This document shows, piece by piece, positions 6 through 25,138 of a DNA stretch of 64,000 nt. The DNA comes from an uncultured bacterium (GTDB lineage: Bacteria; Chloroflexota; UBA5177; JANWHV01): positions 512,001 to 576,000 of the forward strand of contig CAWHAE010000009.1 in the NCBI GenBank assembly GCA_963827235.1, in the 5' to 3' direction. Position numbers and translations under genes: made by a program. Below the pieces are notes generated by a model. The model worked only from the letters and a program-made list of their open reading frames with translations. It did no database searches and was not told the DNA's origin. The first letter of the stretch is position 1. Each line of letters starts with the position of its first letter.

Positions 6-1298
6 GTGGCCACTCTCGGCGTCAATTTGCTGCGCCATCTTATCGCCCTGATCGATCCGGCCGGACCGGGCATGGTGCTCCCGGCGGCTGGCGATTGGCT
101 GTACCGGCACGTGGGAGACCTGCACTCGTGGCTCGCGACGATCACCGGCGCGAGCCACTCCAGCCCTGCCCTCGATTGGCCGGGCTGGTCATATTCGGCT
201 GCCGTGTTTCCTCACTTCAATGAGCTCAGGACCTGGTTTGGCTTTACCGGCGGGCTGGCTGTGTACGGAGCACTTGCCGCTGCTCTCTGGGCCGCGCTCC
301 GCCGCCGGGCAGGTATTGCCGCCCTCTGCGCCGCGGGGGCGACCTCGTTCCTGTTGCTCACTGCTCTTCTCTTGCGCTGGCAGCCATGGCAGGGGCATCT
401 CCTGGCCACCCTGCCGGCACTCTGCTGCCCGGTCATTGCCGTGGCCGCGGATTGGTTGGCGGCGTGTCGCGCCGGCTCCTTGGTGCTGTGCGCGGTCGCC
501 ATGTACGCAGCGGCGGGTGGACCAACCGCCGCCGTGCTCAACCAGCAGCGCCCGCTCTCCGCCTGGACGGAGAGCTACGACGACCAGCAGGCGGCATGGT
601 TCACGCAGATCACACCCGTGCTCACGGCCGCAGACCGCCTGCTGCCGTCGCAGGCGCGCGCCGGCGTGCTTTTCCCGAGCGCCGACAACAACCACTGGGA
701 GCTGCCGTTCTTCGGCCCGAATCTGACTCGCACGCTCATACCGATCAGGCTCCCGGTGAGCGCGGGAAGCTACCCCGGAGCGGCGCCTTTCAGCTATGCC
801 GCGCCCTTTGGCTACCTGATCACCCAAGCTTCGGACGACATCGTCGCGGAATTCTTCGCGCGACAGCCTGCTTTGCGCTGCCTCACGCTCGCACGGGTGA
901 GCGCAGGGTGGCTCGGCCCATACGTGTTCTACCGCTGTACCGGAGTCACGCGCGACATGCTCTATCGCGCGGCGATCGGCGACCAGAATGCCGGCGACTT
1001 CTCGGACGATCTCGTGCAGCTGGACGAGATCGCGCGCGCCGATCCGACCTATCAGCAGCTTCTCTTCGCCCGCGGCTGGGCGGAATGGAACCTGGGCCGG
1101 CGCGCGGACGCCATAGCCGACTATCGCGCCTATTTGCGGATGCATCCGGACGATGCCCAGGCCCAGCTTAACCTGGGCTACAGCTTTGCCGTGATGAACC
1201 GCTGTAGCGAGGCAATTGGGCCGCTCCGGAAGGCTCTCGAGCTACGGCCATCGTGGCAGGCCGCGCGCCGGGATCTTGCCGTATGCGGGGTCAAGTGA
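6..1298 (+). CDS. Membrane protein (probable GT-C/ArnT-like glycosyltransferase 3' part) with C-terminal TPR repeats; probably 5'-truncated by window edge
   Basis: Several hydrophobic helices in the first ~180 aa; C-terminal TPR pattern (LFARGWAEWNLGRRADAIADYRAYLRMHPDDAQAQLNLGYSFAVMNRCSEAIGPLRKALELRP). Confidence 0.6.
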   Translation: MATLGVNLLRHLIALIDPAGPGMVLPAAGDWLYRHVGDLHSWLATITGASHSSPALDWPGWSYSAAVFPHFNELRTWFGFTGGLAVYGALAAALWAALRRRAGIAALCAAGATSFLLLTALLLRWQPWQGHLLATLPALCCPVIAVAADWLAACRAGSLVLCAVAMYAAAGGPTAAVLNQQRPLSAWTESYDDQQAAWFTQITPVLTAADRLLPSQARAGVLFPSADNNHWELPFFGPNLTRTLIPIRLPVSAGSYPGAAPFSYAAPFGYLITQASDDIVAEFFARQPALRCLTLARVSAGWLGPYVFYRCTGVTRDMLYRAAIGDQNAGDFSDDLVQLDEIARADPTYQQLLFARGWAEWNLGRRADAIADYRAYLRMHPDDAQAQLNLGYSFAVMNRCSEAIGPLRKALELRPSWQAARRDLAVCGVK

Positions 1299-1564
1299 GT
1301 CTGATTCAGTGCAGCTTGTATCAGGCGTGGTCGCCAATGAGCTACGGGTTACCAGGCACCCGCGTTCGAGCGGGCACCGGCCACGCGTGGATCTACAGAC
1401 AGTGCGGTGTCACGAAAGGGCTGCCTGAATGGAGAGGTCCGTCGAGTGCGCCATCCCTGTCCCACCGGTCCTACCTTACACTGTATGCTGAGAATCGAGG
1501 CCGGGAAGCCGCCGGGCGCGCCCGGCGAAGCACCCTCAGCCGCGGATCGAGGCACGACGACGCC

Positions 1565-3229
1565 ATGCAGAGTACCTGTAGCCATTGCGGAGCAACGGTA
1601 TCGGGCAACCACCGTTATTGCCCGGTCTGCGGCGCCCGCCTGGGTGGTCCTGCGCCGGCGGCGCCGGTGCGGCGTCCGAGTGCGGTAGTACCCGGCGCGC
1701 CGGTCGGCGGCGGCCTCGTGCTGGGCGATCGGTATGCGGTCGATCACGTGCTCGGACGCGGCGGCATGAGTACCGTCTACCGCGCCTACGATACGCACTT
1801 CTCCAACCGCGTGGTCGCCGTGAAGGAGATGGTCGATACGTTCGCCACGCCCGAGGAGCGCGCCGAAGCCGAGCGGGACTTCTTGCGCGAGGCGGATCTG
1901 CTGGCAGGTCTCCGCCATGCCGCCATTCCCGCGGTCTTCGATCGCTTCAGCGCCAACAGCCGCCACTACCTCGTCATGGAGTACATCGCCGGGGAGAACC
2001 TGGAGAAGGCAGTGGCGGCGCGTTCCGAGCCTTACTCGGAGGTGCAGGTTCGCACCTGGGCGCAGGCACTGTGTGGCGTGCTGCGTTACCTCCACGATCA
2101 GCAGCCTGCCATCATCTTCCGCGACCTCAAGCCGGGCAACATTCTCGTGGAGCCGGGCGGCCGCCTGCGGCTGATCGACTTCGGCATCGCTCGCTTCTTC
2201 AAACACAGCCAGACCACCGACACTACGGCCCTTGGCACGAGCGGCTATGCATCACCGGAGCACTACACCGGACAAACCGACGCCCGATCCGACATCTACT
2301 CGCTGGCAGCAACCATGCACCATCTGCTGACCCTGCGCGATCCCTCGCGGCAGCCTCCCTTCCAGTTCCCGGCCGTGCGAAGCCTCAACCCGGCCGTCTC
2401 GCCCGAGCTGGACCAGATCATCGCCAGGGGATTGGATCCGGATCGAGGCAAGCGCTTTGCCAACGTGCCCGAGTTCGAGGCAGCGTTGCAGGGCAAGGCG
2501 CGCCCGGCCCGCCAGAGGCCCGCCGCAGGCGGCGGTCCCGGGAATACTGCCACGGCAGATCCGGCGCAGCCTGCCGCTTCCCCGATGAACGGAAGCAAGC
2601 AGGCGGCCGCCACGACCATGCTCATGCCCGGAACGCTGGTGCTGGTGATCACCCGCGTCCGGCGTGGAGCCGATCTGAACGCCGTTGCCAACGAGATGGC
2701 GCCGCTGACCGACCAGACTCCTCCCGAGGCGCAGCAGCTACTGCGCCGCCTGCCGGTGGTGACCCCGCTCGCGACCATCGCCCAGCTCGGCACGCGGCTC
2801 AAGCGGCTTCGCGAGCTGGGAACTGACGCGCAGCAGGTAGTGCCTGCCACCGAGTCGGTCCACCTCGACCCCACGCTGAGACAGGAGCTGCTGACCAACC
2901 ATCAGATCGTGATCTGGGACGTCAAGGTCGGCGCCGGGCGCACCTGCTACTGCCGGCGCTGCGGGCATCGCTGGTTGACCAGCAAGGCGGTGGGCGATAG
3001 CGTGCCACAGCAGTGCTATCGTTGCGGCGCCAAGGACTGGAGCCGGCGTCGCCTCTGCAAGTGCGCCTGGTGCGGTCACGAGTTCGAGGTGCACGACTAC
3101 CGGCAAAGTCCAGATCGGCTGAGGCCGGTGTGCGAGTGCTGTGGCTTGCGCGACTGGCTGCTGGGCCGCAGGAGCGGCTGGCAGGGCCTGGTGCAGTCGT
3201 TCCGCGAGCTGCTGGGATTGCCCGGATAA
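1565..3229 (+). CDS. Hanks-type Ser/Thr protein kinase with N-terminal Zn ribbon and C-terminal Zn-ribbon repeats
   Basis: LGRGGMSTVY, VAVKEM, FRDLKPGN, DFG, GTSGYASPE, SDIYSL motifs; ATG 1565 begins MQSTCSHCG...CPVCG. Confidence 0.92.
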   Translation: MQSTCSHCGATVSGNHRYCPVCGARLGGPAPAAPVRRPSAVVPGAPVGGGLVLGDRYAVDHVLGRGGMSTVYRAYDTHFSNRVVAVKEMVDTFATPEERAEAERDFLREADLLAGLRHAAIPAVFDRFSANSRHYLVMEYIAGENLEKAVAARSEPYSEVQVRTWAQALCGVLRYLHDQQPAIIFRDLKPGNILVEPGGRLRLIDFGIARFFKHSQTTDTTALGTSGYASPEHYTGQTDARSDIYSLAATMHHLLTLRDPSRQPPFQFPAVRSLNPAVSPELDQIIARGLDPDRGKRFANVPEFEAALQGKARPARQRPAAGGGPGNTATADPAQPAASPMNGSKQAAATTMLMPGTLVLVITRVRRGADLNAVANEMAPLTDQTPPEAQQLLRRLPVVTPLATIAQLGTRLKRLRELGTDAQQVVPATESVHLDPTLRQELLTNHQIVIWDVKVGAGRTCYCRRCGHRWLTSKAVGDSVPQQCYRCGAKDWSRRRLCKCAWCGHEFEVHDYRQSPDRLRPVCECCGLRDWLLGRRSGWQGLVQSFRELLGLPG

Positions 3230-3672
3230 GGCGCTTTCGCCCTAGTGCTCGCAGGCAGATCTGCCGATACCTCTATATAGAGGTAGAGGCCGCTCGGGGC
3301 CTCGTCCACTCCAGCCAGTCGTGGTCGCCGCGACAAGAGGTGGCAAAACGGCAGCATCGCACCGATCCCGCGCGCAGCGCGCCGCATGGCGCTCCGGCGG
3401 GACTCCCTGCCTTGGTACTATCGGGCGGTATGGCACGCGGTCCCGTTGGACTAGAATGGGACCAATCCTGGGTGCCCAGCCGGAGGTGAGCGTGGTGGCG
3501 TGCGTTCGACACGCGGAAGCGCTCGTGGATCGTTGTCTCCGATCAGGCAGCTATTGGGTGGGCATCCGGCGGCCCGTTAATCGTGGCGAGGTCCGGCACG
3601 AGCCGGGTTGGCGGCTCGGAGAAGTTGTGCCGCCACGCCGGTGGCGGACGCGAATCAAACAGGAGACCAGAC

Positions 3673-4239
3673 ATGATCGCTGAAGAACCGGTAGGCCAGG
3701 AGGAAGCGACGGTACCGGACTCCGAGTGGTGCTACCTGGTGTCGCTCGGCGGCAGCCTTTTCGCGGTGCCGGACAATAGTCGCACGGTCTTGCTCCCCTA
3801 CATCAGTGGCGTTCCCACCATTACCCCCCTGCCCAAAGGCCTCGTCCCCGCCTACGTCCTTGGTCTGATCAACGTCGCGCAGCACGGTGAGCTGCTGATC
3901 GACCTGCCCCGCCTGCTTGGCCTGCGCAGCGGTCCCGTGGGACCGACGGTCGCCGAGAGCCGCCGCGTGCTGGTGATCGGCGAGTCCGTCCCACCCGAGG
4001 TCGGCGAGTATCGACTCGCCTTTGCCGTGGACTACGGCTATGAGCTGTTTCAGGTCGCCCAGGCTACGCCAAGCGTGTCCCATCCGCTCGGCTCGTTCAT
4101 CACCTCGATAGTCGAGACGCCCCATGGAGAGGCAGCCAGGCTGGATATGGAAGAGGTCTGTAACGCAGCGCTCAAGGATATGGGAGCCGAGCGACTGTGG
4201 AATCAGCCAGCGCGTATTCATGATGAGGTAGATGAATAG
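3673..4239 (+). CDS. CheW-like (PilI-like) coupling protein
   Basis: RBS AGGAG; ITPLP..VPAYVLGLINV...LIDLPRLLGL and LAFAVD motifs typical of CheW. Confidence 0.8.
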   Translation: MIAEEPVGQEEATVPDSEWCYLVSLGGSLFAVPDNSRTVLLPYISGVPTITPLPKGLVPAYVLGLINVAQHGELLIDLPRLLGLRSGPVGPTVAESRRVLVIGESVPPEVGEYRLAFAVDYGYELFQVAQATPSVSHPLGSFITSIVETPHGEAARLDMEEVCNAALKDMGAERLWNQPARIHDEVDE

Positions 4240-4586: not shown

Positions 4587-5741
4587 ATGTTAGCAACCCT
4601 ATTCGTTATCGTTCTCATAGCGATTCTCGCGCTGGCTATCTGGATGTACGCCACGAGGAGGATCCGGGAGAGCGTCGAGCAGAGTGAAGCGCAGATGCGC
4701 GAGAAGTCCGAAGCGCTGGCGGAAGACATTGTCGCCGTATCGCAGGCTTTGGCAAACGCCCGAGAGGGCGATCTCACGGTGCAGGTGCCGGATAGCGAGT
4801 CCGAAGTAGGGCTCCTCTCCCTCTCTCTCAACGGCCTGATCAACGACTACGGGCAGATCGTGGGCGGCATCATTCACGCCTCCCAAGCAGTCCAGGAAGG
4901 CGCGGCCCGCGTAGACGAGGGCGTGCGGCGTATCGTGGACGTAGCGACGAGCCAGGCTGAGTCGGTCGCCCAGGTAGCTTCGAGTGTCGACGTCGTGGCC
5001 TCCTCCGCCGTGGACGTGCAGCATGACACCGAGACGGCAACCACCCTGGCGGCAAACTCGCGCCTCGCCGTGAACTCCGGCCAGGAATCCGTGGGCCGCA
5101 TCGCGGAGGCCGTCGACGCTATCAAGGAAGCGGCTATCGGCACCACACGCGAGTTCAAGCGCCTGCAGGAAGACTCGATCCGACTGACCGCCCTCGTGGC
5201 ATCGGTCAAGAGCAACGCCGAGAACCTCGACATGCAGGCCGCGAACGCCACCCTCGAAGCCCGCCACCTGGGCACGGAATCCGGCTCCGCGTTCGCCACC
5301 AACATCGGCCGTCTGGCCCGCCAGGCGCAGGACACGCTCGCCGACGCGGAAGGCGCGGTCCGCAGTGTGGTAACGTCCATCGACGAGGTCAACCGGCGTA
5401 TCGAGCGCATTTCGGAACAGGTACGGCGCGGCGTCGAGGAAGTGCGCACCGTGCGCACCACGTTCGATCAGATCACCCAGACCAACACTTCGCTGGTACA
5501 GTTCATCGACAACGTGGCCGATGCGGCCGGTGCCCAGGCGCACTCCGCCCAGCAGGCTGCACGGTCGATCGGCGAAATCGCCCAGGTGTTCGAGCAGTTC
5601 ACCGAGCTGCTGATTACCTCCGGCGACGAGATTGCGAACATGCGCCTCGTCGTAGCCGGTTTGCGCGAGTCGGTCGCCGATCTCAAGGTAAGCCCCGAGG
5701 TCGATCGTAGACCTGCTTTGTCCGCGGAAAGCGCGGCATGA
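4587..5741 (+). CDS. Divergent methyl-accepting chemotaxis protein (single TM, HAMP, signalling domain; no sensory domain)
   Basis: RBS GGAGG; N-terminal TM; HAMP (GDLTVQVP...EVGLLSLSLNGL); heptad MA domain with degenerate tip NAENLDMQAANATLEARHLG. Confidence 0.85.
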   Translation: MLATLFVIVLIAILALAIWMYATRRIRESVEQSEAQMREKSEALAEDIVAVSQALANAREGDLTVQVPDSESEVGLLSLSLNGLINDYGQIVGGIIHASQAVQEGAARVDEGVRRIVDVATSQAESVAQVASSVDVVASSAVDVQHDTETATTLAANSRLAVNSGQESVGRIAEAVDAIKEAAIGTTREFKRLQEDSIRLTALVASVKSNAENLDMQAANATLEARHLGTESGSAFATNIGRLARQAQDTLADAEGAVRSVVTSIDEVNRRIERISEQVRRGVEEVRTVRTTFDQITQTNTSLVQFIDNVADAAGAQAHSAQQAARSIGEIAQVFEQFTELLITSGDEIANMRLVVAGLRESVADLKVSPEVDRRPALSAESAA

Positions 5742-6427
5742 ACGCCACAGAGCTGCTCGCGCAGGGCGGAGAGCGTGATTCAACGTCCGCCGATCCCGTG
5801 CTCAGCCACCTATTGGAGCGGATGCTCGAGGCGAGCCAGGGCAACGCCGACCAGTTGATCGGCGCCGTGCAGCGGGTGACGCGCGAGCTGTCCTCGCTCA
5901 CCTTCAATTTCAACGGGCACGCCATTCGCTCCGGCATACGCAGCGCTGAGCTGCAGGCTCTCGACCATCAGCTCGACGAGGCGAGCTCCGTGCTCAATCG
6001 CACCGTCTTCGATCTGCAGCAGCGTCTGCTTCGCGACAGCCAAACCTTGCAGCCGCTCACGCGCATCTTCGAGGTCGTCGATCTCGAAGATGAGCGACCG
6101 GCACCTCTACGGCTGCGCGAGCGGATTGATGGCTACTGCGAGGCGCTCGAGCGGGAGTACGAGGGCATCCGCGAGACCCTGGCGGCGTTGAGCTTCCGCC
6201 TGGCGCTGATGGGCAACAACATCGAGATCGCGGCCTGCCGGGCCGGCAGCGCGGATGTCTCCGCGCCCGTCGATCTCTTCTGCGTGATGGCCAACCAGCT
6301 CCGCTTACTGGCCGACCGCTTGAGAAACGCTACCGCCGATCTGCGCATCTTCCAGCAGTCGCAGAACGGCTATGCCGAGTCACTTCGGGTGACCCTGGCC
6401 AACTACAGTCGGGGGACGGCAGCGTGA
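5738..6427 (+). CDS. Short soluble MCP-tip-like helical protein
   Basis: LALMGNNIEIAACRAG...FCVMANQLRLLA resembles the MCP hairpin LLALNAAIEAARAG...[12 protein letters not shown]; ATGA and GTGA overlaps with neighbours. Confidence 0.65.
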   Translation: MNATELLAQGGERDSTSADPVLSHLLERMLEASQGNADQLIGAVQRVTRELSSLTFNFNGHAIRSGIRSAELQALDHQLDEASSVLNRTVFDLQQRLLRDSQTLQPLTRIFEVVDLEDERPAPLRLRERIDGYCEALEREYEGIRETLAALSFRLALMGNNIEIAACRAGSADVSAPVDLFCVMANQLRLLADRLRNATADLRIFQQSQNGYAESLRVTLANYSRGTAA

Positions 6428-9400
6428 GTGATTCTGTAGACCGCCTGCAAGCAGCCCTGGCGGCGGCGCTGGCCGCGCCGCCGGCCGCGCCGGGCAGCCC
6501 CGAGGAAGAGGAAGGCGCCGACATCGCCACGCCGCGCGCCAAGGCTGCCTCGGCTCTTGAGGCCGCCCTGCGCGATCGCCTGGAATGGCACTGGGACCGC
6601 GATCAGCACCAGGGCGAGCAATTGTGCCGCGTCCTGGCAGACATGTGCATGTGGCATGAGCACACCACGCTGCGCGACAAGGTGCTCGATCTGCAGCGCA
6701 AAGGCATCGCCTTGCTCGCAGCCGTTCCCGATGGGGAGCCGAGCGCGGGCGACGTGGGCGATATCGAAGACGAGTATCAGGCGATAAAGCCGCGCGAGGA
6801 TGACGCAGCGGCTATTGCCGCCGCGCTCGGCATGACGCTGGAAGAAGCGAAGGCGTTCGGCCTCGTGGGTACGCTCACCAGCGTCGGTTTCGAGGAAGAA
6901 GGACCGGTTCCGGTCGCAGCGGGCGTCTCCGCCGAGGCCGAGCAGCCCGAAGAGGATCTCGAGACGCTCTTCCGGCGCGAGGCAAAGAACCGCGCCTCCA
7001 AGGATCTGCCGTCTGCCTTGCAGAATTTCTGGGGCAATCAGCAGTCGATGGACCTCATGCTGACGGTCCGTCGCGGCTTCCACACGATCAAGGGCGACGC
7101 CCGCATGACCGCGGTCTCCGCTCCTCCGGAGGTTGCCGAGGAGCTCGAGGGATTGGCGGTGCTCTCGGAAGCGGCGGAAGACATCGTCGACTACTTGCTC
7201 GGCGATGACTACGATCCGTCGCAGCCCGCGCCTCCGCTGCCTCCCGGCGCCTTCAGCCTGATGAACGAGGTCGCCAATGCCCTCGTTCGGCGGCTCGAGC
7301 TACGCCGTCCGCTGGACAATGAAGTTACCCTGCTCAAGCGGCTGGCTGCTATGCAGCGGAAGGCCGCGGCGCAAGCCGGCGTGGTGATCGACGAGGCGTC
7401 GCTGGCCGCCAAGATCCCGCTCCCCACCATGCCCGCCGCAGCACCGAAGGTGCAGCGGCAAGAACCGGTTTCCACCACGGGACATTCACTGCTGCCCACC
7501 TTCTTGGACGAGGCGAAACGCTTGATGCCCGATCTGCATCGCGCTCTCGGCATTCTGAGCACCACGCCGTCCGACGAAGCATCGCTGCTCCTGGCTCGCC
7601 GCAAGCTGCACACCCTCAAAGGTGGCGCTGCCCTCATTGGCGCTGAGGCGGTCGACATCCAGATGATCGCGCATCATGCCGAGGATCTCTTCGAGCTGAT
7701 CGAAGACGTCCAGCTCCGTGGCGAGCTGAATGAAGTGCCGAAAGATGTGCTCGACGGTGTGCTCGACGCCGAAGACGCCCTGCAGACTCTCCTGGATAAC
7801 CTGGAGCATGTGAACTCGGGCGGGCGCAGTCCCGTGCAGCCGCTGCTGCAGGATCCGGCGGAGCTCGTCACGCGTCTCCAGCAGATCACCGAGCGCGTTC
7901 GCACCGGCGACGTTGCACCGGCGGCGCCTGTGGCCGTGTCCGAGGAGCCCGCCGCCATGCCGGCGGCCAAGGCGGCCGCGCCAATCGCGGAAGCGGGCGC
8001 CGAAGTACCGGCGCAACCGATCACGGACCCTGCTCTCTTGCAGCGCGTGGTGATACCACCGCCGGTCGCACGGCCGCCGGCTCGCATGGTCAGCCTGCGC
8101 GACCTGAGCTTCCGGCGGTTCATCGAGAAGAGCGAGCAGGGCCAGGTGCGCAGCCGTACGGCCGTGATCGACCGCCTGGCAGCCGTCGAGGAACGCGCCC
8201 GTATGACAAGCGGCGCGTTCTCCCTGTTCATCGGCGTGCAGCAAATGTCCCAGTATATAGAGGAGCAGGCCCGATATCACGATCTGGTTGGCGAGAAGGG
8301 CCAGCTCTACATCTTCGGCGCGCTCGACCAGGTGCCGTCGCCCCTGTCCCGCGTTACCCTCGTGCCGCTCGTCGAAGGCGACGAGCTGCTGCGCGAGCGC
8401 TTCGCCATCTTCGAATCGCCGGAGTTCAGCACGGGATTCGTCGCCCATGACACTGCCGACGACGTAGAGGGCAGCGGCAGACGCTTCCTTTGCCTGGCGA
8501 TCGAAGAACACGTGACCCTGGCCGAGATGTCGGACCTGCTTCGCACGGCCATCCGCCGCGGTGGCGCCCTGGTGGCGGCGAGGCGCACGGCGCTGCACAG
8601 CATGTCGGCGCTCAAGCCGCTGCCTCGGCTGCAGCCGCCCATCACCCGCCGGGACCGCGCACTGCCGGTAGAGATCACGCCGCGGCGACAGCAGGACTTT
8701 GGCAAGGACGTCAGCGTGCGCAATGCCCTGACGGCGCTGGAAGATCTCTCGGTCACACGCGACTCCCTGCAAGGCCTCGTGACGCGCATGTCACAGCAAC
8801 GCGTAGAGGGTCGTCGCAGCGGCGTGCGCCTGCGCACACTGATCGAGCGGGTGGGCTCGGAGCTGGCAGGTCTGCGATCGGAGCTGGTGCGCACGACTCG
8901 CCGCACTGGTGATTGGGATCTGCTTGAAAAGGAAGAGTTCACCACGGTCGACGTGCTGCTCGGTCAGCTCGACGAAGCCCTCGCCGACCTCGAGGAGTCC
9001 GACACTAACCTGCGTCGGGATCTCGCCGAAGCGACCGCGCAGGTCGAGATCCAGGCCGACAAGGCGCTGAGCGCCCAGCGCGCTCTGCTCGATATCAGCA
9101 TGATTCCGCTTTCGCAGATCAAGGATCGTTTGGCCCATGCCGTGCGCTCCGCCAGCAGGCGGCTGCGCAAGCAGGTCGAGTTCGCGCTCGAAGGCGGCGA
9201 TCTGGTGCTCGACGGGCGGATCGCCGAGGCCGTGTTCGAGCCGATCATGCACCTGATCAATAATGCGCTCGACCATGGCATTGAGACGAGCACCGGTGAG
9301 CGTGTCGAGGCCGGAAAGACGATCGAGGGTCACCTGACCATCCGCGGGCGCTCCACGGGCGACGGCGTGGCTATCGACGTCAGCGACGACGGCCGTGGGA

Positions 9401-10500
9401 TAGATCCCGACGCCGTGGCTGCTGCGGCGCTTGGACGCGGTCTCGTTTCAGCGGACGAGATCGCATCGATGTCCACGGATGACAAGATCGCGCTGATCTG
9501 GCGGCCCGGCTTCAGCACTGCCTCCTCCGTGACCTCAATGTCTGGTCGCGGTATCGGCATGAAGAGTGCGCAGGACGCCGTGGCCGCCCTGAACGGCCGT
9601 ATCGAGATTCACTCCGTGCTCCGCCAGGGCACGACGTTCAGCATCATCTTGCCACGCTCGCTCGCCATGATGCGCGTCGAGGTGGTACGTGAAGGGCAGA
9701 ATGTGATCGCCATTCCGATCACGCAAATGGTTGCCACGCATTCCGTTCCCTATTCGGAGCTCGACGACCTCGAGCCGGGACACAGCATTCAGGCAGGCGG
9801 TAAGGAGCTGCCCGTGTTCGCGGTGACGCTTGCAGACGGACCGGCGGGCGACGGCGAGGCCGGGCGCGCCACCCTTCTGGAGGTGGCCGCCAGGAACGGC
9901 GCCATCGTGGTCGACGAGGTCCAGGGTAGCCAATACCTGCCGGTGCGATCCGCGCCGGAGTATCTCCGCCGGCACTGCGGCCTGCTTGGCTATGCCGTGG
10001 GCGGCGGCGGCCAGATCCTGCCCATACTCGACCTGCCGACGCTCATAGACCGCTCGCGCGCCCTCGTGATCGATGCGCCCAAGGCTACCGTCGCCCGGGT
10101 CGCCTACAGCATTCTGGTAGTCGACGACAGCCAGACGATGCGGCGAGCCCTTCGCGATACGCTCAGCAAGGCCGGCTTCAGCGTGCAGGAGGCAGTCGAC
10201 GGCCACGATGCGCTGAACATCTGCATACGGCAGATGCCCGACTTGATCACGCTAGACATGGAGATGCCCGGCATGGACGGCCTGGAGGCACTGACGGCGC
10301 TACGATTGCTGCCGAACGGTGGGGCTACCGTGCCCGTGTTCATGATCACCTCTCGCCAGCAGGCGCGCCATCGCGCCGCCGCGCTCGCCGCGGGCGTTAC
10401 GCGGTACTTCACGAAGCCCTTCGATACAGACGAGTTGCTCAGCGCCACGAATCTGGTGCTGGCCGAAGGCACCGGCCAGGCGCGGGAGGTGGCGTCATGA
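6424..10500 (+). CDS. cheA: CheA/ChpA-like hybrid kinase: Hpt-Hpt-DICT-like-dimerisation-HATPase-CheW-REC
   Basis: FHTIKG and LHTLKG Hpt histidines; HLINNALDHG, DDGRG, PGFST..SGRGIGM; C-terminal REC (ILVVDDS, TLDMEMPGMDG, FTKPF). Confidence 0.92.
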   Translation: MSDSVDRLQAALAAALAAPPAAPGSPEEEEGADIATPRAKAASALEAALRDRLEWHWDRDQHQGEQLCRVLADMCMWHEHTTLRDKVLDLQRKGIALLAAVPDGEPSAGDVGDIEDEYQAIKPREDDAAAIAAALGMTLEEAKAFGLVGTLTSVGFEEEGPVPVAAGVSAEAEQPEEDLETLFRREAKNRASKDLPSALQNFWGNQQSMDLMLTVRRGFHTIKGDARMTAVSAPPEVAEELEGLAVLSEAAEDIVDYLLGDDYDPSQPAPPLPPGAFSLMNEVANALVRRLELRRPLDNEVTLLKRLAAMQRKAAAQAGVVIDEASLAAKIPLPTMPAAAPKVQRQEPVSTTGHSLLPTFLDEAKRLMPDLHRALGILSTTPSDEASLLLARRKLHTLKGGAALIGAEAVDIQMIAHHAEDLFELIEDVQLRGELNEVPKDVLDGVLDAEDALQTLLDNLEHVNSGGRSPVQPLLQDPAELVTRLQQITERVRTGDVAPAAPVAVSEEPAAMPAAKAAAPIAEAGAEVPAQPITDPALLQRVVIPPPVARPPARMVSLRDLSFRRFIEKSEQGQVRSRTAVIDRLAAVEERARMTSGAFSLFIGVQQMSQYIEEQARYHDLVGEKGQLYIFGALDQVPSPLSRVTLVPLVEGDELLRERFAIFESPEFSTGFVAHDTADDVEGSGRRFLCLAIEEHVTLAEMSDLLRTAIRRGGALVAARRTALHSMSALKPLPRLQPPITRRDRALPVEITPRRQQDFGKDVSVRNALTALEDLSVTRDSLQGLVTRMSQQRVEGRRSGVRLRTLIERVGSELAGLRSELVRTTRRTGDWDLLEKEEFTTVDVLLGQLDEALADLEESDTNLRRDLAEATAQVEIQADKALSAQRALLDISMIPLSQIKDRLAHAVRSASRRLRKQVEFALEGGDLVLDGRIAEAVFEPIMHLINNALDHGIETSTGERVEAGKTIEGHLTIRGRSTGDGVAIDVSDDGRGIDPDAVAAAALGRGLVSADEIASMSTDDKIALIWRPGFSTASSVTSMSGRGIGMKSAQDAVAALNGRIEIHSVLRQGTTFSIILPRSLAMMRVEVVREGQNVIAIPITQMVATHSVPYSELDDLEPGHSIQAGGKELPVFAVTLADGPAGDGEAGRATLLEVAARNGAIVVDEVQGSQYLPVRSAPEYLRRHCGLLGYAVGGGGQILPILDLPTLIDRSRALVIDAPKATVARVAYSILVVDDSQTMRRALRDTLSKAGFSVQEAVDGHDALNICIRQMPDLITLDMEMPGMDGLEALTALRLLPNGGATVPVFMITSRQQARHRAAALAAGVTRYFTKPFDTDELLSATNLVLAEGTGQAREVAS

Positions 10501-10883
10501 GCGTCGAGATCGATGTCTACGTTGCCACGAGTGGGCCCTATCGGATGGCGTTCGCTGCGGATCAGATAGAGTCCACCAGGCCCTGCCCGGCGTTCACCCT
10601 GCCCGAGGGTGAGCAGCCCGGTGTTCTTGGCACTCGCGACGGACTGCGGGTGCTCCACCCAGGGTGGTTCTGGGGAGATGCCGAGGTGAAAGAGCAGCCA
10701 CAATACCTGTTGGTTGTGCGCTCCGGCATATGCGCACTGGCAGTCGACACGTGCCAGCTGCAGCGTCTGCTCATCGATCCACCTCCACCGGTATTGGCGG
10801 GGAGCGGCATGGTCTTTGGCCTGGCAAACACGACCGGCGAGCTGACACCGGTCCTCGACCTTGCCTGTATTCCTCTGGCATAG
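10497..10883 (+). CDS. Small divergent CheW-like protein (ChpC-like)
   Basis: ALAVD and GELTPVLDL CheW motifs; ATGA overlap with cheA. Confidence 0.65.
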   Translation: MSVEIDVYVATSGPYRMAFAADQIESTRPCPAFTLPEGEQPGVLGTRDGLRVLHPGWFWGDAEVKEQPQYLLVVRSGICALAVDTCQLQRLLIDPPPPVLAGSGMVFGLANTTGELTPVLDLACIPLA

Positions 10884-10964: not shown

Positions 10965-11432
10965 ATGCTTTTCGGCGGGCGCAAGCAGGTGTCGCAGCAA
11001 GCTGAAGAATCGGAAGGGGATCGGTACACGACCGTCAAACCGCATACCGGTCCATTGATCATGGCAGTTGATGACGACGCTACGTCCCGCGCCGCGATTA
11101 TCAACACGCTGGAGGCTGCCGGGTATCGCGTCCACGCCGTCAGCAACTATGCCGATTGGGACGCCGCGCGGCAAGGCGGCATGAGCCCGGCACTGATGGT
11201 GCTCGACATCATGCTTGCAGAGCCGCGCCGAGGGGGCTATGAGATCCTGCGTGCGCTGCGCAAAGAGGATCGCAGGACGCCTGTCATTATGCTTAGCTCG
11301 CGCAACACACCCAGCGACGAGGCCTTCGCCAAGGCGAACCAGGCGAATGCATTCGTAAGCAAGGTTCGGGGAGAGTTCGACCATCCGGCACATGGGCTAG
11401 TGGCGACGGTGGACAGACTTCTGTCCTCTTGA
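10965..11432 (+). CDS. Single-domain response regulator (CheY/PilH-like)
   Basis: IMAVDDD, MVLDIML, PVIMLSSRNTPSDEAFAKANQANAFVSK; RBS AAGGAG. Confidence 0.85.
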   Translation: MLFGGRKQVSQQAEESEGDRYTTVKPHTGPLIMAVDDDATSRAAIINTLEAAGYRVHAVSNYADWDAARQGGMSPALMVLDIMLAEPRRGGYEILRALRKEDRRTPVIMLSSRNTPSDEAFAKANQANAFVSKVRGEFDHPAHGLVATVDRLLSS

Positions 11433-11538
11433 AGCCTCCTGTTGAACGGTGCTACGGAGTAGAAGAAGGGGGTATGACCTTGGCCCATGGCGCGAGCGCT
11501 GTAATTCGTATTCCTACAGGCTTAAGGAGACATCGACT

Positions 11539-12045
11539 ATGAACAGCATGGCTGGGTCAGGCCCCGAGCGGCAAAGAATCCTAATCGTCGAAGACTCGAA
11601 GACGCACCGCCGCAACCTTCGCGACGCCCTTGCAGAGGAGTATGAGCTGCACTGGGCGATCAACGCGCGAGATGCTCTTGCCCTTGCCTTCACCAAGCGG
11701 CCCAACTTGATCCTGCTCGACATCAATATCGAGCCACCGCCAACAGACGAGGTCGACAAGGAGGGCAATCCCATACTGGGCAAGAATATCAGCGGTCTGG
11801 AAGTCTGCCGGCAGCTGAAGAAGAGCATTCTGAAGGACACGCCGATTATCGTGCTCACCGCGTCCAAAGGATTCATTCCCAGAATCAAAGGCAAGCTCGC
11901 GCATGCTAATGAGTACCTCACAAAGCCTATCGAGACGCAGCAGCTGCTTGACTTCATCTATAAATACCTGGGTAGCCCGCGTGTTCGAGGCCGGCTCGAC
12001 AAGATCGAGAGGGACTACGGCGAGCGTGCTGCGCAATCACGCTAG
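11539..12045 (+). CDS. Single-domain response regulator (PilG/PatA-REC-like)
   Basis: ILIVEDS, ILLDIN, PIIVLTASKGFIPRIKGKLAHANEYLTKP; RBS AAGGAG before ATG 11539. Confidence 0.85.
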   Translation: MNSMAGSGPERQRILIVEDSKTHRRNLRDALAEEYELHWAINARDALALAFTKRPNLILLDINIEPPPTDEVDKEGNPILGKNISGLEVCRQLKKSILKDTPIIVLTASKGFIPRIKGKLAHANEYLTKPIETQQLLDFIYKYLGSPRVRGRLDKIERDYGERAAQSR

Positions 12046-19879: not shown

Positions 19880-20268
19880 GGCTCAGGCCCTGCTGCCCGG
19901 CAGCCATGGCCGGCACATCGGGAGGCGACCGAGACGGTCGCAGCCCCGGGGTTGCCGGAGCGGCGCCCTGGATCATAGCCAAGGTATACTCTGGGAGCGG
20001 TGAGCGAGTTGCCGACTATGCAACTCCGGCCTGAGCTACACTGAGTTGTGGAGCCGGACGGCTCCTCCGCGTAGCTATCCGCCGTGGCCTGCTGGAGAGG
20101 GATGCTACGCGGGCCACACCCCCTGCCCCAGGGTGCCGGCCACGCTAGAGAAGTGGTGCTGGACGCTCGCCATCCGCCGGTCGGACGGATGGTCACCGTA
20201 CCGAGCAGGATCGCGCCGGCGGCGGCGCGTCCCATGTGCGCCGATTGATGAGGAAGGGCCTGGAGGCA

Positions 20269-21999
20269 ATGCCGCGCACTCGCCGGGCGCTGCTGGAGAT
20301 TCCCCGCCGTACGCTTGTAGTTGCCGTCGCGTTTTCCCTCCTGGCGACCGCGATCGCCATTGCCCAGATGGCGCTGATCGCCCATGTGACCGCCGCCGTG
20401 TTCCTGCATCACCGGCAGATGCGCGACGAAGGCGCATCGCTCGCGGTGCTGGCCGGCCTGGCCTTGCTGCAAGCGTGCGCGGTGTTCGGGCGAGAGGTTG
20501 CCTCTCAGTACGCCGCCGTGCGCAGCAAGGCGGCCCTGCGCACGCGGCTATTCGCCAAGCTCCTGCGGCTCGGCCCCGGCTACCTGCGCGGCGAGCGAAC
20601 CGGAAGCCTGGTCGCCACGGCCACCGAGGGCATTGAGCGCATCGATCCCTACGTGGGCCGCTATCTGCCGCAAGTAATTCTGAGCGTGGCCGTGCCGCTG
20701 CTGATCGGCGTCGCGGTGTGGTCGCAGGACTGGATCAGCGGCGTGATTCTGCTGGCAACCGCACCCGTCCTTCCCTTGCTCATGATCCTCGTAGGCAGCT
20801 ATGCCGGGAGCCATATCCAGGCGCAGTGGACCGCGCTCGCCCGGCTGCACGCGCACATGCTGGACGCGGTGCAGGGCCTGACGACCCTGATCTCTTTCGG
20901 CCGGGTGCCGACGGAGCGTGCCCGCCTCCAGCGGGTCGGGCGTGACTATCGGGACAAGACGTTGCAGACGCTGCGCTACGCGTTCCTCTCCAGTCTGGTG
21001 CTGGAGTTCATCACCGCCGGTGCTATCGCGTTGGTCGCGGTGATGCTGGGCCTCCGGTTGCTCTCCGGCTCTATCTCCTTCGAGCGCGCCTTCTTCGTCC
21101 TGCTCCTCACACCCGAGTTCTACCGCCCCCTGCGGGAGCTCGGCCTGCACCGCCACGCGGCCATGGAGGGTGCCGCGGCGGCAGGCCGCGTGCAGGAAAT
21201 CCTCAGCCAGCCCGAGCCGATCCGGATCTCTCCTGTGCAGCAGGCCCGTCTCGACGCCTGTCCGCCGGCAATCTGCTTCCAAGCTGTCCGCTTCACCTAT
21301 CCGGGCAGCGAGCAACCGGCGATTCCGGGCGTCGATCTCACGCTGCCGCCCGGCACGCGCACGGCGCTCGTGGGCAGGAGCGGCTCGGGCAAGACGACAC
21401 TGGTCAACCTGCTTCTGCGCTACCAGGATCCGGATGCCGGCCGGATCCTGGCCGGAGAGACGCCCATACACGCGATCGCCGTCGAAGAGTGGCGCAGCCG
21501 GGTTGCCGCCGTGCCCCAGCGGCCGTATCTCTTCGCCGGCACCGTGCGCGACAACATCTGCCTCGGCAAGCCGCGGGCACCGCGGGAAGAGGTCGAGCAG
21601 GCGGCCGGCCTGGCCGGGGCCGCGGAGTTCATCGAGCGTCTGCCACGCGGGTACGACACGCTCGTGGGCGAGCGGGGCGCGCGACTCTCGGGCGGCGAGA
21701 TGCAACGGATCGCCGTTGCCCGCGCCTTCCTCAAAGATGCACCGATCCTGGTGCTAGACGAGCCGACATCGAGCCTCGATCCGCTCAGCGAGGGGCTGAT
21801 CCGCGCCGCGCTGGCGCGGTTGATGCAGCATCGTACCGTGCTCATCGTGGCGCACCGTCTGAACACCGTGTTTACCGCAGAGCAGATCGTCGTGCTCGAC
21901 GCCGGGTGCGTGGTCGAGAGCGGCACCCACGCCTCGTTGCTCGCCCGCGGGGGGCTCTACAGCCGGCTGCTATCCGTGCGCAGCGGGGTAGCAGTATGA
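20269..21999 (+). CDS. cydD: Thiol reductant/heme ABC exporter subunit CydD
   Basis: RYLPQ, LLLTPEFYRPLRELG, GRSGSGKTT, LSGGE, LDEPTSSLD. Confidence 0.9.
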   Translation: MPRTRRALLEIPRRTLVVAVAFSLLATAIAIAQMALIAHVTAAVFLHHRQMRDEGASLAVLAGLALLQACAVFGREVASQYAAVRSKAALRTRLFAKLLRLGPGYLRGERTGSLVATATEGIERIDPYVGRYLPQVILSVAVPLLIGVAVWSQDWISGVILLATAPVLPLLMILVGSYAGSHIQAQWTALARLHAHMLDAVQGLTTLISFGRVPTERARLQRVGRDYRDKTLQTLRYAFLSSLVLEFITAGAIALVAVMLGLRLLSGSISFERAFFVLLLTPEFYRPLRELGLHRHAAMEGAAAAGRVQEILSQPEPIRISPVQQARLDACPPAICFQAVRFTYPGSEQPAIPGVDLTLPPGTRTALVGRSGSGKTTLVNLLLRYQDPDAGRILAGETPIHAIAVEEWRSRVAAVPQRPYLFAGTVRDNICLGKPRAPREEVEQAAGLAGAAEFIERLPRGYDTLVGERGARLSGGEMQRIAVARAFLKDAPILVLDEPTSSLDPLSEGLIRAALARLMQHRTVLIVAHRLNTVFTAEQIVVLDAGCVVESGTHASLLARGGLYSRLLSVRSGVAV

Positions 22000-23723
22000 G
22001 CACACGACTCATCCACGCCCTGCGGCCGTACCGGCGACAACTGGCCCTAGCGCTCGTTCTGAGTTGTGCGGCCCTGGCGGCCAACGTCGGGCTGCTGGCC
22101 ATTGCCGGTTACCTCGTGGCGGCGGCGGCTTTGAAGCCGCTTCTGGAGACCCTGGCCTTTCCCATGTATGCCGTGCGCGTTCTGGGCGTTGGGAGGGCCC
22201 TGCTGCGCTACGGCGAGCGATTGGTTTCCCATCGTACCGTGCTGAGCCTGCTGGCCGACCTGCGAGTCTGGCTGTTCAGCCGGCTCGCACCCCTGATGCC
22301 CGCTGCCGGCGCGAGGCGCGGCAGCGGCGATCTGCTGGTCCGTTTGACCTCCGATCTCGACGAGCTTCAGCACCTCTATCTGCGCATCATCTCGCCCCTC
22401 GCCGTGGCCGCCTGTGCGCTCTGCGCCATCGCGGCAGTGTTCGCGGTCTTCAGCCCGCTCCTGGCGCTCTGCGCGGCGCTGTTGCTGCTGGCGGCGGGCG
22501 TGGGCGTGCCGCTCCTGGCGCTCCGGTGCGCGCGCGGACTGGGAGATCGGCACCTGGCCACGCGCGGCGCCCTGTTCGACCGCCTGGTGGAAGGCGTCCA
22601 GGGTATGGCCGATCTGCTGATCTGCGGACGAGCGGAGGACCACGCGGAACGCCTCGGCCGGATAGATTGCGAGGCCGGACGCCTGCAGATGCGCCAGGCA
22701 CGGATCAGCGGCCTGCAAGCGGCCCTGGCCACCTTGCTGACAGCCCTCGCGGTCGTGATCATCCTGGCGCTCGGCGTCTCGCAGGTCGACGCCGGGCAGG
22801 TTGGCGGGATGTACCTCGGCTTTCTCGTGCTGCTCATGCTGGCCGGCTTCGAGGCGGTACAGCCGCTGGGCGTCGCCTTCGCCACCATGGGACGCAGTCT
22901 CGCCGCCGCACACCGTCTGCTCGAAGTCGTCAATGCCGAGCCCGTGGTGCGCGATCCATGGCACCCGTTGGCGGTCCCCGTTCAGCCCTCGCTGTGCTTC
23001 GAACGCGTGTGCTTCTCCTACCACGAGACGGAAGGCCGGGTGCTCGACGACGTCGATCTGCTCGTCCAGCCGGGCCGGTGGATCGCGGTCGTAGGCCCGA
23101 GTGGGGCCGGGAAGAGCACGATTGCCGGCCTTGCCCTGCGCTTCTGGGAAGCGGATGCCGGTACCGTGCTGCTCGGCGGCGCTCCGGTGAGCGACTATCT
23201 GCTCGACGATCTGCGCGCCTCCTTCGCGTTGGTCGCTCAGGACACGATGCTGTTCACCGACACCTTGCGCAACAATCTGCGCATCGCCCGGCCCGATGCC
23301 ACGGACGAGCAGATCCTCGACGCGCTTGCCGTCGCCCAGCTCAGCGATTTGCCGGCAGCGCTACCCGGCGGCCTCGACGGCTGGATGGGCGAGCAGGGGC
23401 TCACGCTCTCGGGCGGCGAGCGCCAGCGGCTTGCCGTGGCACGTGCCGTGCTCAAGGACGCGCCCATCCTCATCCTCGACGAAGCGACGGCAAACCTGGA
23501 TCCCGACATGGAGGAGCGGCTTCTCGCGGCCATCCATGCCCGCATGCGCGAGCGATCGGTTCTGGTGATCACCCACCGGCTGGTCGGCATGGAGCGCATG
23601 GCGGAGATCGTGGTGCTGGATCGCGGACGCGTGGCCCAGCGCGGCACGCACGCCCAGCTCAGCGAGCGCGCTGGGCTGTACCGGGAGATGCTGGAGGCGC
23701 AAGAAGAAGTCTTCCTGACCTGA
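21996..23723 (+). CDS. cydC: ABC exporter subunit CydC
   Basis: VRVLGVGRALLRYGERLVSH, GPSGAGKST, LSGGERQRL; ATGA overlap with cydD. Confidence 0.9.
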   Translation: MSTRLIHALRPYRRQLALALVLSCAALAANVGLLAIAGYLVAAAALKPLLETLAFPMYAVRVLGVGRALLRYGERLVSHRTVLSLLADLRVWLFSRLAPLMPAAGARRGSGDLLVRLTSDLDELQHLYLRIISPLAVAACALCAIAAVFAVFSPLLALCAALLLLAAGVGVPLLALRCARGLGDRHLATRGALFDRLVEGVQGMADLLICGRAEDHAERLGRIDCEAGRLQMRQARISGLQAALATLLTALAVVIILALGVSQVDAGQVGGMYLGFLVLLMLAGFEAVQPLGVAFATMGRSLAAAHRLLEVVNAEPVVRDPWHPLAVPVQPSLCFERVCFSYHETEGRVLDDVDLLVQPGRWIAVVGPSGAGKSTIAGLALRFWEADAGTVLLGGAPVSDYLLDDLRASFALVAQDTMLFTDTLRNNLRIARPDATDEQILDALAVAQLSDLPAALPGGLDGWMGEQGLTLSGGERQRLAVARAVLKDAPILILDEATANLDPDMEERLLAAIHARMRERSVLVITHRLVGMERMAEIVVLDRGRVAQRGTHAQLSERAGLYREMLEAQEEVFLT

Positions 23724-23779
23724 TAATAACGAGGAGTGCCGTAGAAGCTCAGAAGAGAAAGGAAGGTTGGGAAGGGTCC

Positions 23780-25138
23780 ATGGACGATCCGACGTCTGCC
23801 TCGCGACTGCAGTTCGCGTTCACCATCACCTACCACTATCTATTCCCACAGCTGACCATGGGTCTGGCCCTTCTGCTTGTGGTCTTCAAGACGCTGTATA
23901 TGCGCACGCACAAAGACGCCTACAACGACGCCGCGCGCTTCTGGGCCAGGCTGTTCGCCATCAACTTCGTGCTCGGCGTGGTCACCGGCATCCCCATGGA
24001 GTTCCAGTTCGGCACCAACTGGGCCCGGTTCTCCGCCTCGACCGGCCAGATCATCGCGCAGACGCTGGCCATGGAGGGTGCGTTCGCCTTCTTTCTGGAG
24101 TCGGCTTTCCTGGGCATCTTTCTATTCGGCGAGCGGCTGTTCGGCCAGCGGTTGCACTGGCTGTCGGCCGTGCTGGTCTGGCTGGGCACCTGGCTTTCCG
24201 GAGGGTTCATCATCGCCACCAATGCCTGGATGCAGCATCCGGTCGGCTATACCACCAGCAACGGCAAGTTCGTGCTCCACGACTATTGGGCCGTGCTCTT
24301 CAACTCATGGATCCTGCCGCAATACCTGCACACGATGAGCGGCGCGGTGATCACGGCCAGCTTCGTGCTGGCCGGCCTTGGTGCCTACTACGCGCTGGCG
24401 AACCAGCATGTCGACTTCGGCAAGATGTTCCTCACCATCGGCGTGATCGCCGGCTTCCTGGCCAGTGCCTTCCAGCTCTTCCCCAGCGGCGACATGGAAG
24501 GCAGGCAGGTAGCGGAGCATCAGCCGGCCAAGCTGGCGGCGATGGAAGGCCTCTTCAAGTCCGAGCACGGCGCAGGCATTGCTATCCTGGGCCAGCCGGA
24601 TGTCGGCAAGCAGGTGCTAGATAACCCGCTGATCGTGCCGAACGTGCTCAGCTTCCTTACCTACCGGAGCTGGAACGCCAACGTGGTCGGGCTGGATGCC
24701 ATTCCACGCGACCAGTGGCCGGACAGCGTGGCCTTCGTCTATTTCGTCTATCACATCATGGTGGGCCTGGGCACGATCTTCATCGCCATCATGGCCCTGT
24801 CCCTCCTCCTCCTCTGGCGCCGTCGATTGTTCGCCAGCCGCCCCATGCTCTGGATCCTGATGCTTGCCACGCCCTTCCCCTTCATCGCCAACTCCGCGGG
24901 ATGGCTCACCGCCGAGCTGGGCAGGCAGCCCTGGGCAGTCTACGGTCTGCAGCGCGTGGCCCAGGGCACATCGCCCACCCTATCGGGCGGCAACGTGTTG
25001 TTCACGCTGCTTGGATTTGCCGGGATCTATCTCGTGCTCGGCCTGCTGTTCGTGATCCTGGTGGTGCAGGAAGCGGTGCGGGGGCCGTCGGCCGACGAGA
25101 GTGCGCCTTCGGGAACAGAAGGCTTGATCTCGTACTAG
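23780..25138 (+). CDS. cydA: Cytochrome bd ubiquinol oxidase subunit I
   Basis: SRLQFAFTITYHYLFP, GIPMEFQFGTNW, QPAKLAAMEG, GWLTAELGRQPW. Confidence 0.95.
   Translation: MDDPTSASRLQFAFTITYHYLFPQLTMGLALLLVVFKTLYMRTHKDAYNDAARFWARLFAINFVLGVVTGIPMEFQFGTNWARFSASTGQIIAQTLAMEGAFAFFLESAFLGIFLFGERLFGQRLHWLSAVLVWLGTWLSGGFIIATNAWMQHPVGYTTSNGKFVLHDYWAVLFNSWILPQYLHTMSGAVITASFVLAGLGAYYALANQHVDFGKMFLTIGVIAGFLASAFQLFPSGDMEGRQVAEHQPAKLAAMEGLFKSEHGAGIAILGQPDVGKQVLDNPLIVPNVLSFLTYRSWNANVVGLDAIPRDQWPDSVAFVYFVYHIMVGLGTIFIAIMALSLLLLWRRRLFASRPMLWILMLATPFPFIANSAGWLTAELGRQPWAVYGLQRVAQGTSPTLSGGNVLFTLLGFAGIYLVLGLLFVILVVQEAVRGPSADESAPSGTEGLISY

Follow-up and report, generated by a model that had tools for sequence, protein, structure and literature searches.

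A divergent DICT domain was detected inside a hybrid CheA histidine kinase encoded in a 64,000-nucleotide stretch of DNA (termed the window; positions 512,001 to 576,000 of the forward strand of contig CAWHAE010000009.1, assembly GCA_963827235.1) from an uncultured member of the Chloroflexota. The domain lies in the linker between the second histidine phosphotransfer (Hpt) domain and the P3 dimerization domain of this P2-less kinase, and we favor, with a probability of roughly 0.55, the reading that it serves as a receptor-independent cytoplasmic input module through which kinase output would be altered. CheA is the textbook case of a histidine kinase that itself lacks an input domain and relies on chemoreceptors; the abstract of a survey of 13,673 CheAs states that CheA lacks a sensor domain, and the portions of that survey drawn on here name P2, the receiver and CheC/CheX as its only auxiliary domains (PMC10782961). 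If the favored reading is correct, a folded domain of the sensor type within CheA would amount to a second route of signal entry into the chemosensory array. Such a CheA would also offer a handle on the widespread DICT domain, with autophosphorylation in the presence and absence of the domain as an easy read-out and with a predicted phospholipase-D-like fold and four invariant acidic/aromatic residues as concrete targets for mutation; its use is limited by the uncultured state of the organisms and the small size of the clade.

A DICT domain in the linker between Hpt2 and P3

The hybrid CheA gene (6424..10500, + strand) was identified from the list of open reading frames (ORFs) and its translation. 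It has a GTG start and encodes 1,358 amino acids (aa), overlapping at its start with the stop of the preceding gene and at its stop with the start of the following ORF. Pfam matches and structure prediction gave the domain order N-terminal region, Hpt, Hpt, DICT, extended P3, HATPase_c, CheW and receiver (REC). An initial annotation, made from the sequence, had placed a DICT-like domain at 8130-8555, where P2 normally sits and between Pro/Ala linkers; the peptide quoted in its support lies in frame +1 of the cheA ORF, and the interval corresponds to aa 570-710.

A search of the whole protein against Pfam-A with hmmscan matched the DICT family, PF10069, at aa 572-676 (profile positions 18-128 of 129) with 27.1 bits and an E value of 4.5e-6, the curated gathering cut-off for this family being 23.8 bits. 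Scores were 31.2 and 31.1 bits with isolated segments of 200 and 142 aa, respectively, and 32.2 bits in a six-frame search, so that the profile check of aa ~570-710 gave a match above the curated cut-off. Orthologues passed the cut-off independently (33.6 bits for locus L007 of genome G004 and 25.7 bits for L006 of G002), and a precomputed Pfam column gives PF10069 for the related proteins P0002, P0003 and P0004; no PF10069 match was obtained at E ≤1e-5 for the distant orthologues P0005 and P0056. When aa 545-735 were used as a phmmer query of 1.84 billion cluster representatives, 51 proteins had E values of 1e-3 or lower. Of the 50 that were not the query itself, 46 exceeded the PF10069 cut-off in their own right; those that did not were the CheA relatives P0006, which scored 22.1 bits, and P0007, which is a fragment, together with P0048 and P0026, the last a false positive of the coiled-coil type. 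An hmmsearch run with a DICT profile constructed for this analysis matched all 66 sequences given to it, each CheA relative included.

The CheA segment was compared with the motifs typical of the family, namely, the E of the IE..A helix, GFQ..S, RY..LA, FG..D and L..EWF. Residues E589, Y618, D635 and E658 were invariant over 26-27 aligned DICT sequences, with Q606, S609, L649 and L655 being nearly so. All 12 CheA-DICT sequences (11 distinct) retained E589, Q606, Y618, D635, L649 and E658, while S609 was present in 10 and L655 in 11 of them; the tryptophan of the family's "EWF" motif is an arginine in the CheA DICT. Judged by profile scores, reverse matches and conserved residues, the segment is divergent but clearly a DICT domain, as had been annotated.

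The domain extends from about aa 556 to 728 (8089..8607, same strand as the gene), with a Pfam core at aa 572-676 (8137-8451), and is wider than originally noted because a long C-terminal helix (aa 696-728) belongs to it. On its N-terminal side is a Pro/Ala-rich linker (linker 1, aa 495-555, 7906..8088, +; 21% Pro and 30% Ala), the modelled part of which had low values of the predicted local distance difference test (pLDDT) and no secondary structure in AlphaFold2, and for which Pfam at E ≤10 gave no meaningful family. On its C-terminal side a second, Pro-rich linker (linker 2, aa 729-762, 8608..8709, +; 18% Pro), where the P3-P5 model begins with pLDDT values of <50, leads to P3. The Pro content inside the domain is 2%, as opposed to 21% and 18% in the two linkers. 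Both the Pro/Ala flanks and the position between Hpt2 and the dimerization domain were thus borne out.

An AlphaFold2 model of aa 545-735, generated with an alignment of 27 sequences that were mostly canonical DICT domains, had a mean pLDDT of 88.9 and a predicted template modelling score (pTM) of 0.83. The model is an alpha/beta domain with seven main strands in a seven- to eight-stranded sheet and ends in the long helix. In an exhaustive structural comparison with 48,161 PDB representatives, phospholipase-D-type folds filled the top 24 places, and the next matches had Z scores of 5.4 or lower. The best match was 2f5t, the sugar-binding domain of TrmB (Z score of 11.4; root mean square deviation of 3.4 Å over 128 residues), followed by 3qph (10.5), TrmBL2 (10.1), NucT (10.0), PPK1 (9.7) and the DUF1669 domain of FAM83B (9.6) and then by Nuc, Zucchini and BfiI. 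Foldseek agreed, with NucT and Zucchini both at an E value of 8.5e-4 and TM-scores of 0.35-0.48. A PDB sequence search with the DICT profile turned up no solved structure (best E value of 0.26), and the literature searched links DICT neither to the phospholipase D fold nor to TrmB. The HxK(x)4D catalytic motif was absent from all seven CheA relatives and from all 27 aligned DICT sequences; hence, DICT is not a phosphodiesterase, and it is the fold alone that would be common to it and the phospholipase D superfamily. From this model, the DICT domain is predicted to adopt a non-catalytic phospholipase-D-like fold.

The host genome is an 8.0-Mb Chloroflexota metagenome-assembled genome (MAG), 95.9% complete and 9% contaminated, with 14 CheW-domain matches, corresponding to about six CheAs, and with flagellin genes; the CheA described here is its sole carrier of DICT. 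Two paralogous clusters in the same genome, L086 (G000:C18:188500-199500) and L087 (G000:C10:820000-831500), have the order CheW, methyl-accepting chemotaxis protein (MCP), small unknown protein and CheA, the last with two Hpt domains, HATPase_c, CheW and a receiver, and in L087 a response regulator follows CheA. Their CheAs, of 1,014 and 959 aa, have neither DICT nor P2. BLASTP aligned these paralogues to the Hpt domains and then from aa 765 or 830 to the C terminus (38-39% identity), with nothing aligned between approximately aa 465 and 765. The P2/CheY-binding Pfam family was not listed for the whole CheA at E ≤10, a search in which the HMMER filters drop most weak matches. As the paralogues lack both P2 and DICT in this stretch, DICT entered a Pro/Ala linker that had no P2, rather than taking the place of a P2 domain; the annotated placement "where P2 normally sits" therefore holds as a position but not as a replacement. 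L087 also contains a 356-aa ORF (L087:4434-5504) with a weak Hpt match that overlaps the start of the CheA ORF (5377-8256) and may represent a split or frameshifted CheA N terminus.

The rest of the hybrid CheA follows a familiar plan, with all of the following segments on the + strand. The conserved N-terminal region (aa 1-175, 6424..6948) is 59-79% identical among orthologues, has no Pfam family at E ≤10 and was not aligned to the two in-genome paralogues, to which BLASTP alignments begin at aa 177 or 212; judged by these alignments, it is a second lineage-specific addition to CheA. Pfam Hpt matched with 44.4 bits in two stretches. The first Hpt domain (6949..7323) has an HTIKG phospho-acceptor motif (H220) and aligned to the paralogue Hpt, and the second (aa 356-460, 7489..7803), the best Pfam Hpt stretch, has an HTLKG motif (H396). 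The extended P3 region (8710..9123) is predicted to be a helical hairpin of approximately 128 aa, its two helices spanning roughly aa 761-825 and 833-888, in a P3-P5 AlphaFold2 model with a pLDDT of 76.7. The identification of P3 as a dimerization domain is a prediction from this hairpin, Pfam H-kinase_dim having gone undetected in the region at E ≤10. In phmmer searches of PDB sequences, Thermotoga maritima CheA (1b3q) matched with an E value of 2.2e-48, and both 1b3q and 3ja6 aligned from aa 874 onward, a position in the second P3 helix; the NCBIfam CheA models match aa 840-1207. The P4 kinase domain, HATPase_c (aa 941-1078, 9244..9657; Pfam, 57.3 bits), contains the N (HLINNALDHG), G1 (DDGRG) and G2 (GRGIGM) boxes. 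The P5 CheW-like domain (aa 1088-1210, 9685..10053) was assigned from Pfam and from alignment to P5 of T. maritima CheA (1b3q and 3ja6), the CheW score being 21.5 bits in hmmscan, under the cut-off of 23.5, and 26.2 bits, above it, in the six-frame search. A C-terminal receiver (aa 1230-1341, 10111..10446; Pfam, 97 bits) has the acidic pair DD at 1234-1235, D1278 and K1331. With both Hpt histidines, all three P4 boxes (N, G1 and G2) and the aspartates and lysine of the receiver retained, the hybrid CheA looks catalytically competent.

Rarity and conservation of the DICT-CheA architecture

A word-index search with the DICT region returned four proteins of 1,353-1,364 aa. Two runs of a profile search among long proteins returned five proteins each, consisting of four or five CheA relatives and, in one of the runs, a DICT-B12 protein; these runs scored 8,000 crowded candidates and missed known DICT kinases and are, hence, weak evidence for rarity. 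With one genome per species (GTDB), a relative covering the DICT region was encoded by only two other contigs, both from Chloroflexota MAGs. Inspection of 41 relatives detected the DICT segment in three of the four other species of the genus, in none of the 16 from the class and in one of the 20 others from the phylum, the last not being a CheA. PF10069 was present in 49 of 401 Chloroflexota genomes (60 match rows), among which only four open frames of at least 1,000 aa carried this family, all in this genus. A further eight PF10069 frames were of 707-934 aa, and the five examined all encoded DICT-(GAF)-B12-binding proteins.

In a quick maximum-likelihood tree (IQ-TREE) built from 66 DICT domains, all 12 from CheAs fall into a single group (Shimodaira-Hasegawa-like approximate likelihood ratio test [SH-aLRT] support of 100), which is compatible with a single fusion, and their nearest neighbors (support of 80) include a stand-alone Chloroflexota DICT. 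One member of the CheA-DICT group is named "chemotaxis protein histidine kinase CheA" in IMG. The terms "DICT" and "PF10069" are absent from the text and two supplements of the 13,673-CheA survey (PMC10782961), the coding of other domains in its tables being unchecked, and no description of a DICT-bearing CheA was found in the literature searched. The DICT-CheA architecture is rare, with about a dozen sequences found, and restricted to one small Chloroflexota clade, so that neither the profile evidence nor the distribution contradicts the initial annotation. CheAs with a more canonical DICT may occur elsewhere.

Across four orthologues, the DICT region was 74, 69, 50 and 44% identical to that of this protein and almost free of indels. 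Linker 1 was the least conserved part (51, 43, 21 and 23% in the same orthologues), and the core domains of CheA were 65-96% identical. The ratio of nonsynonymous to synonymous substitution rates (dN/dS; Nei-Gojobori) for the DICT region was 0.21-0.37 in all six pairs from four genomes, with synonymous sites near saturation in some pairs. By this measure, the DICT domain in CheA is under purifying selection.

A possible input role and its alternatives

According to the favored reading, DICT, acquired in the linker between Hpt2 and the extended P3 within one small Chloroflexota lineage, would bind a small molecule or a partner without the involvement of a receptor. As DICT is tethered and no continuous helix joins it to the kinase, a change in output would occur through access of Hpt to P4 or through DICT pairing. 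In one mode, the DICT domains of the two subunits of a CheA dimer would pair in response to a ligand or partner and so restrict the neighboring Hpt, and in another, DICT would dock onto Hpt2 or P4 and thereby change the access of Hpt to the ATP-binding P4. From there the signal would travel by way of both Hpt domains, reaching the receiver fused to CheA as well as the two single-domain response regulators whose genes lie downstream. Nuc and similar proteins in which the phospholipase D fold forms a single domain assemble as homodimers, the pocket lying at the interface.

The receptor of the cluster leaves room for such direct input. The short MCP (384 aa; 4587..5741, +) has an N-terminal membrane helix, HAMP and MCPsignal and no sensor domain recognizable with Pfam, and the MCP of G001 has the same length and likewise lacks a sensor domain; the absence of this domain in both genomes (G000 and G001), together with the status of the CheA as the sole DICT protein of its genome, would allow a signal to enter at the kinase itself. 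The MCPs of L086 and L087, unlike the MCP beside the DICT-CheA, carry Cache-type sensor domains.

Several observations weigh against an input role. The DICT region evolves faster than the CheA kinase core, and the assembly of one species of the same genus (G003, 92% complete) contains no orthologue, its best match being 36% identical. The MCP ORF of G004 may be as long as 715 aa, with 328 extra aa in which no Pfam family was found, so that a receptor without a sensor is not general, and any of the 24 MCPsignal matches in the host genome might feed the DICT-CheA. Pro-rich linkers separate DICT from P3, making the rigid-helix coupling of sensor kinases inapplicable and the mode of coupling a conjecture. 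As for the domain family, the literature searched gives no characterized function for DICT, and a passage of a 2022 review counts it among domains with "no discernible physiological purpose."

A rather unlikely alternative is that DICT is a docking or scaffolding module, an analogue of P2 that recruits a response regulator or another partner to Hpt. DICT does occupy the P2 position, flexibly tethered as P2 is, in a CheA with no P2/CheY-binding match, and the genes for two single-domain response regulators lie a short way downstream. Single-domain phospholipase-D-fold proteins commonly act through protein-protein interfaces. Similar response regulators are, however, present in the paralogous clusters, which lack DICT, so that no DICT-specific partner gene is visible, and the 24 leading structural matches were phospholipase-D-type without exception. 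Kinases, cyclases and GAF proteins that contain DICT, moreover, have it at their input end: among the 46 DICT matches, fusion partners were HATPase_c (12 proteins), GAF (6) and nucleotide cyclases (3), with no other Pfam family in the remaining 25.

It is improbable that DICT is a tolerated passenger, which folds within a permissive linker but no longer signals. More than half of CheAs have nothing but an unstructured linker at the position of DICT, as stated in the same survey (Berry et al. 2023, PMC10782961), and the faster evolution of DICT than of the core, the lack of the whole orthologue from one species' assembly and the limitation of the fusion to a small clade would all fit such a passenger. 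The low dN/dS, the near absence of indels across orthologues and the confident model argue otherwise, as does the retention of the four invariant residues and of Q606 and L649 in 12 of 12 CheA-DICT sequences, even in proteins only 37% identical to the query in this region. Scarcely credible, finally, is a chance or compositional similarity of what would be a structured linker, since the thin margin of the whole-protein score (3.3 bits above the cut-off) and the three relatives under the cut-off or without a match (P0006, P0005 and P0056) are contradicted by the reverse matches to DICT, the aligned invariant residues and the performance of the DICT profile.

The cluster around the DICT-CheA gene was examined on both sides, with all of its genes on the + strand. 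Upstream of the MCP gene is cheW (3583..4239; Pfam CheW, 24.4 bits; 61% identical to the G004 orthologue), and between MCP and cheA is a conserved 229-aa protein (5738..6427; 59% identical to the G004 orthologue), which overlaps the MCP stop and the cheA start and has no Pfam or NCBIfam match. This protein is retained in G001 and G004, and the paralogous clusters have unknown proteins of similar size in the same place. From the MCP gene to cheA, successive genes overlap at their stop and start codons, and the gene order of the cluster is common to G001 and G004. Downstream are response regulator 1 (155 aa, 10965..11432; Response_reg, 53.1 bits; conserved in G004) and response regulator 2 (198 aa, 11449..12045; 62.3 bits; 91% identity with its G004 orthologue), after which an unknown protein of 338 aa is encoded. 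An ORF of 128 aa at 10497-10883, which overlaps the cheA stop and has a counterpart of the same size in G001, was considered as a CheW-like gene and rejected, since it matches no Pfam or NCBIfam family and is missing from G004 and from the paralogous clusters, and it is doubtful as a gene. A DICT-specific partner gene was also sought in the cluster and rejected, as every neighbor either recurs in the paralogous clusters, which lack DICT, or matches no family. Neither cheB nor cheR is in the cluster, the four CheB genes of the genome being elsewhere. Upstream of the cluster (1253-3229) is a gene for a Ser/Thr protein kinase whose N terminus bears a zinc ribbon, in a placement conserved in G001 and G004. 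Farther along the window, 20236-25138 contains an ABC transporter gene (ABC_membrane and ABC_tran) and then a long ORF that ends in cytochrome bd oxidase subunit I, and it looks like a cydDC-cydAB-type region.

DICT proteins in other Chloroflexota and known CheAs and kinases

DICT was predicted to function in light responses by Aravind et al. (2010), as quoted in a preprint. Six DICT loci in other Chloroflexota were inspected, three of which come from the same family and count as one observation. In these three (L093, L094 and L098, from G257, G113 and G177), a stand-alone DICT of approximately 190-220 aa is encoded beside or near the single DNA photolyase gene of the genome, and the G177 DICT is also near a gene for a UvdE UV endonuclease. 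In the other three, from three families (L095, L096 and L097, from G209, G294 and G230), the DICT gene is within ~2.5 kb of genes for phytoene-desaturase-like amine oxidases; one of these genes encodes a DICT-STAS fusion, and that of G209 also adjoins P450 and lycopene cyclase genes. A recurrent Chloroflexota architecture, DICT-(GAF)-B12-binding_2-B12-binding (690-927 aa), joins DICT to a module of the cobalamin photoreceptor type (L005:1339-3408, L099:2933-5713, L100:3443-5788, L101:3465-5621, L102:3345-5492 and protein P0057), and no DNA-binding domain was detected in these proteins. The photolyase, UvdE and carotenoid neighbors and the DICT-GAF-B12 fusions tie DICT to light or UV responses in Chloroflexota. 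The DICT-CheA might take a receptor-independent light or photo-oxidative-stress input, with the kinase itself, whose own receptor lacks a sensor domain, sensing and DICT acting as a non-catalytic sensor module of phospholipase D fold; we regard this extension as tentative and rather doubtful. Nothing light-related adjoins the DICT-CheA cluster.

The predicted DICT fold resembles TrmB (2f5t and 3qph) only in the first subdomain of the TrmB effector domain (2f5t residues 110-242). DICT lacks the second, beta-barrel subdomain, and its model ends in a helix, after which comes the Pro-rich linker. Sugar contacts of TrmB lie mostly in that second subdomain, according to a review (PMC4158304); a sugar-sensing reading of the match was for this reason dropped, and the match assigns a fold, not a ligand. 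The fold is also like that of NucT (6ehi), Nuc (1bys), Zucchini (4ggj), the PPK1 C-domains and FAM83 DUF1669. Sequence identity of DICT to TrmB and to the single-domain phospholipase-D-fold proteins is 4-14%.

Compared with P2 of Escherichia coli and T. maritima CheA, DICT likewise lies between P1 and P3 and is tethered by flexible linkers, but it differs in its size (~173 aa), in its predicted phospholipase-D-type fold and in the absence of a P2 match. Judged by architecture alone, the layout of the DICT-CheA resembles that of the type IV pilus (Tfp) or alternative cellular function (ACF) class of CheAs (e.g., Pseudomonas aeruginosa ChpA), which share with it two Hpt domains, the lack of P2, a C-terminal receiver and, as predicted for the present protein, an extended helical P3. 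The longest dimerization domains are those of Tfp-class CheAs of Chloroflexota and Cyanobacteria, as given in the consulted portions of the survey (Berry et al. 2023, PMC10782961). Similarity to Tfp/ACF-class clusters extends to the lack of cheB and cheR, and the two in-genome paralogues have the same multi-Hpt, P2-less, receiver-bearing architecture. The genome has a single T2SSE-type ATPase match above the cut-off, which makes type IV pili a doubtful output. What sets the present CheA apart from this class is the folded DICT in the Hpt-P3 linker.

The class I sensor histidine kinases of the type DICT-helical linker-HisKA-HATPase_c (P0021, P0023, P0030, P0036, P0046 and P0049) share the invariant E, Y, D and E residues with the CheA DICT. 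In these kinases, DICT is N-terminal, approximately 80 residues upstream of the HisKA dimerization and histidine phosphotransfer (DHp) domain, whereas in CheA it is internal, between the phosphotransfer and dimerization domains, and has Pro-rich linkers on both sides. Being internal and isolated in this manner, the CheA DICT must be coupled to its kinase differently from the DICT of the DICT-HisKA kinases.

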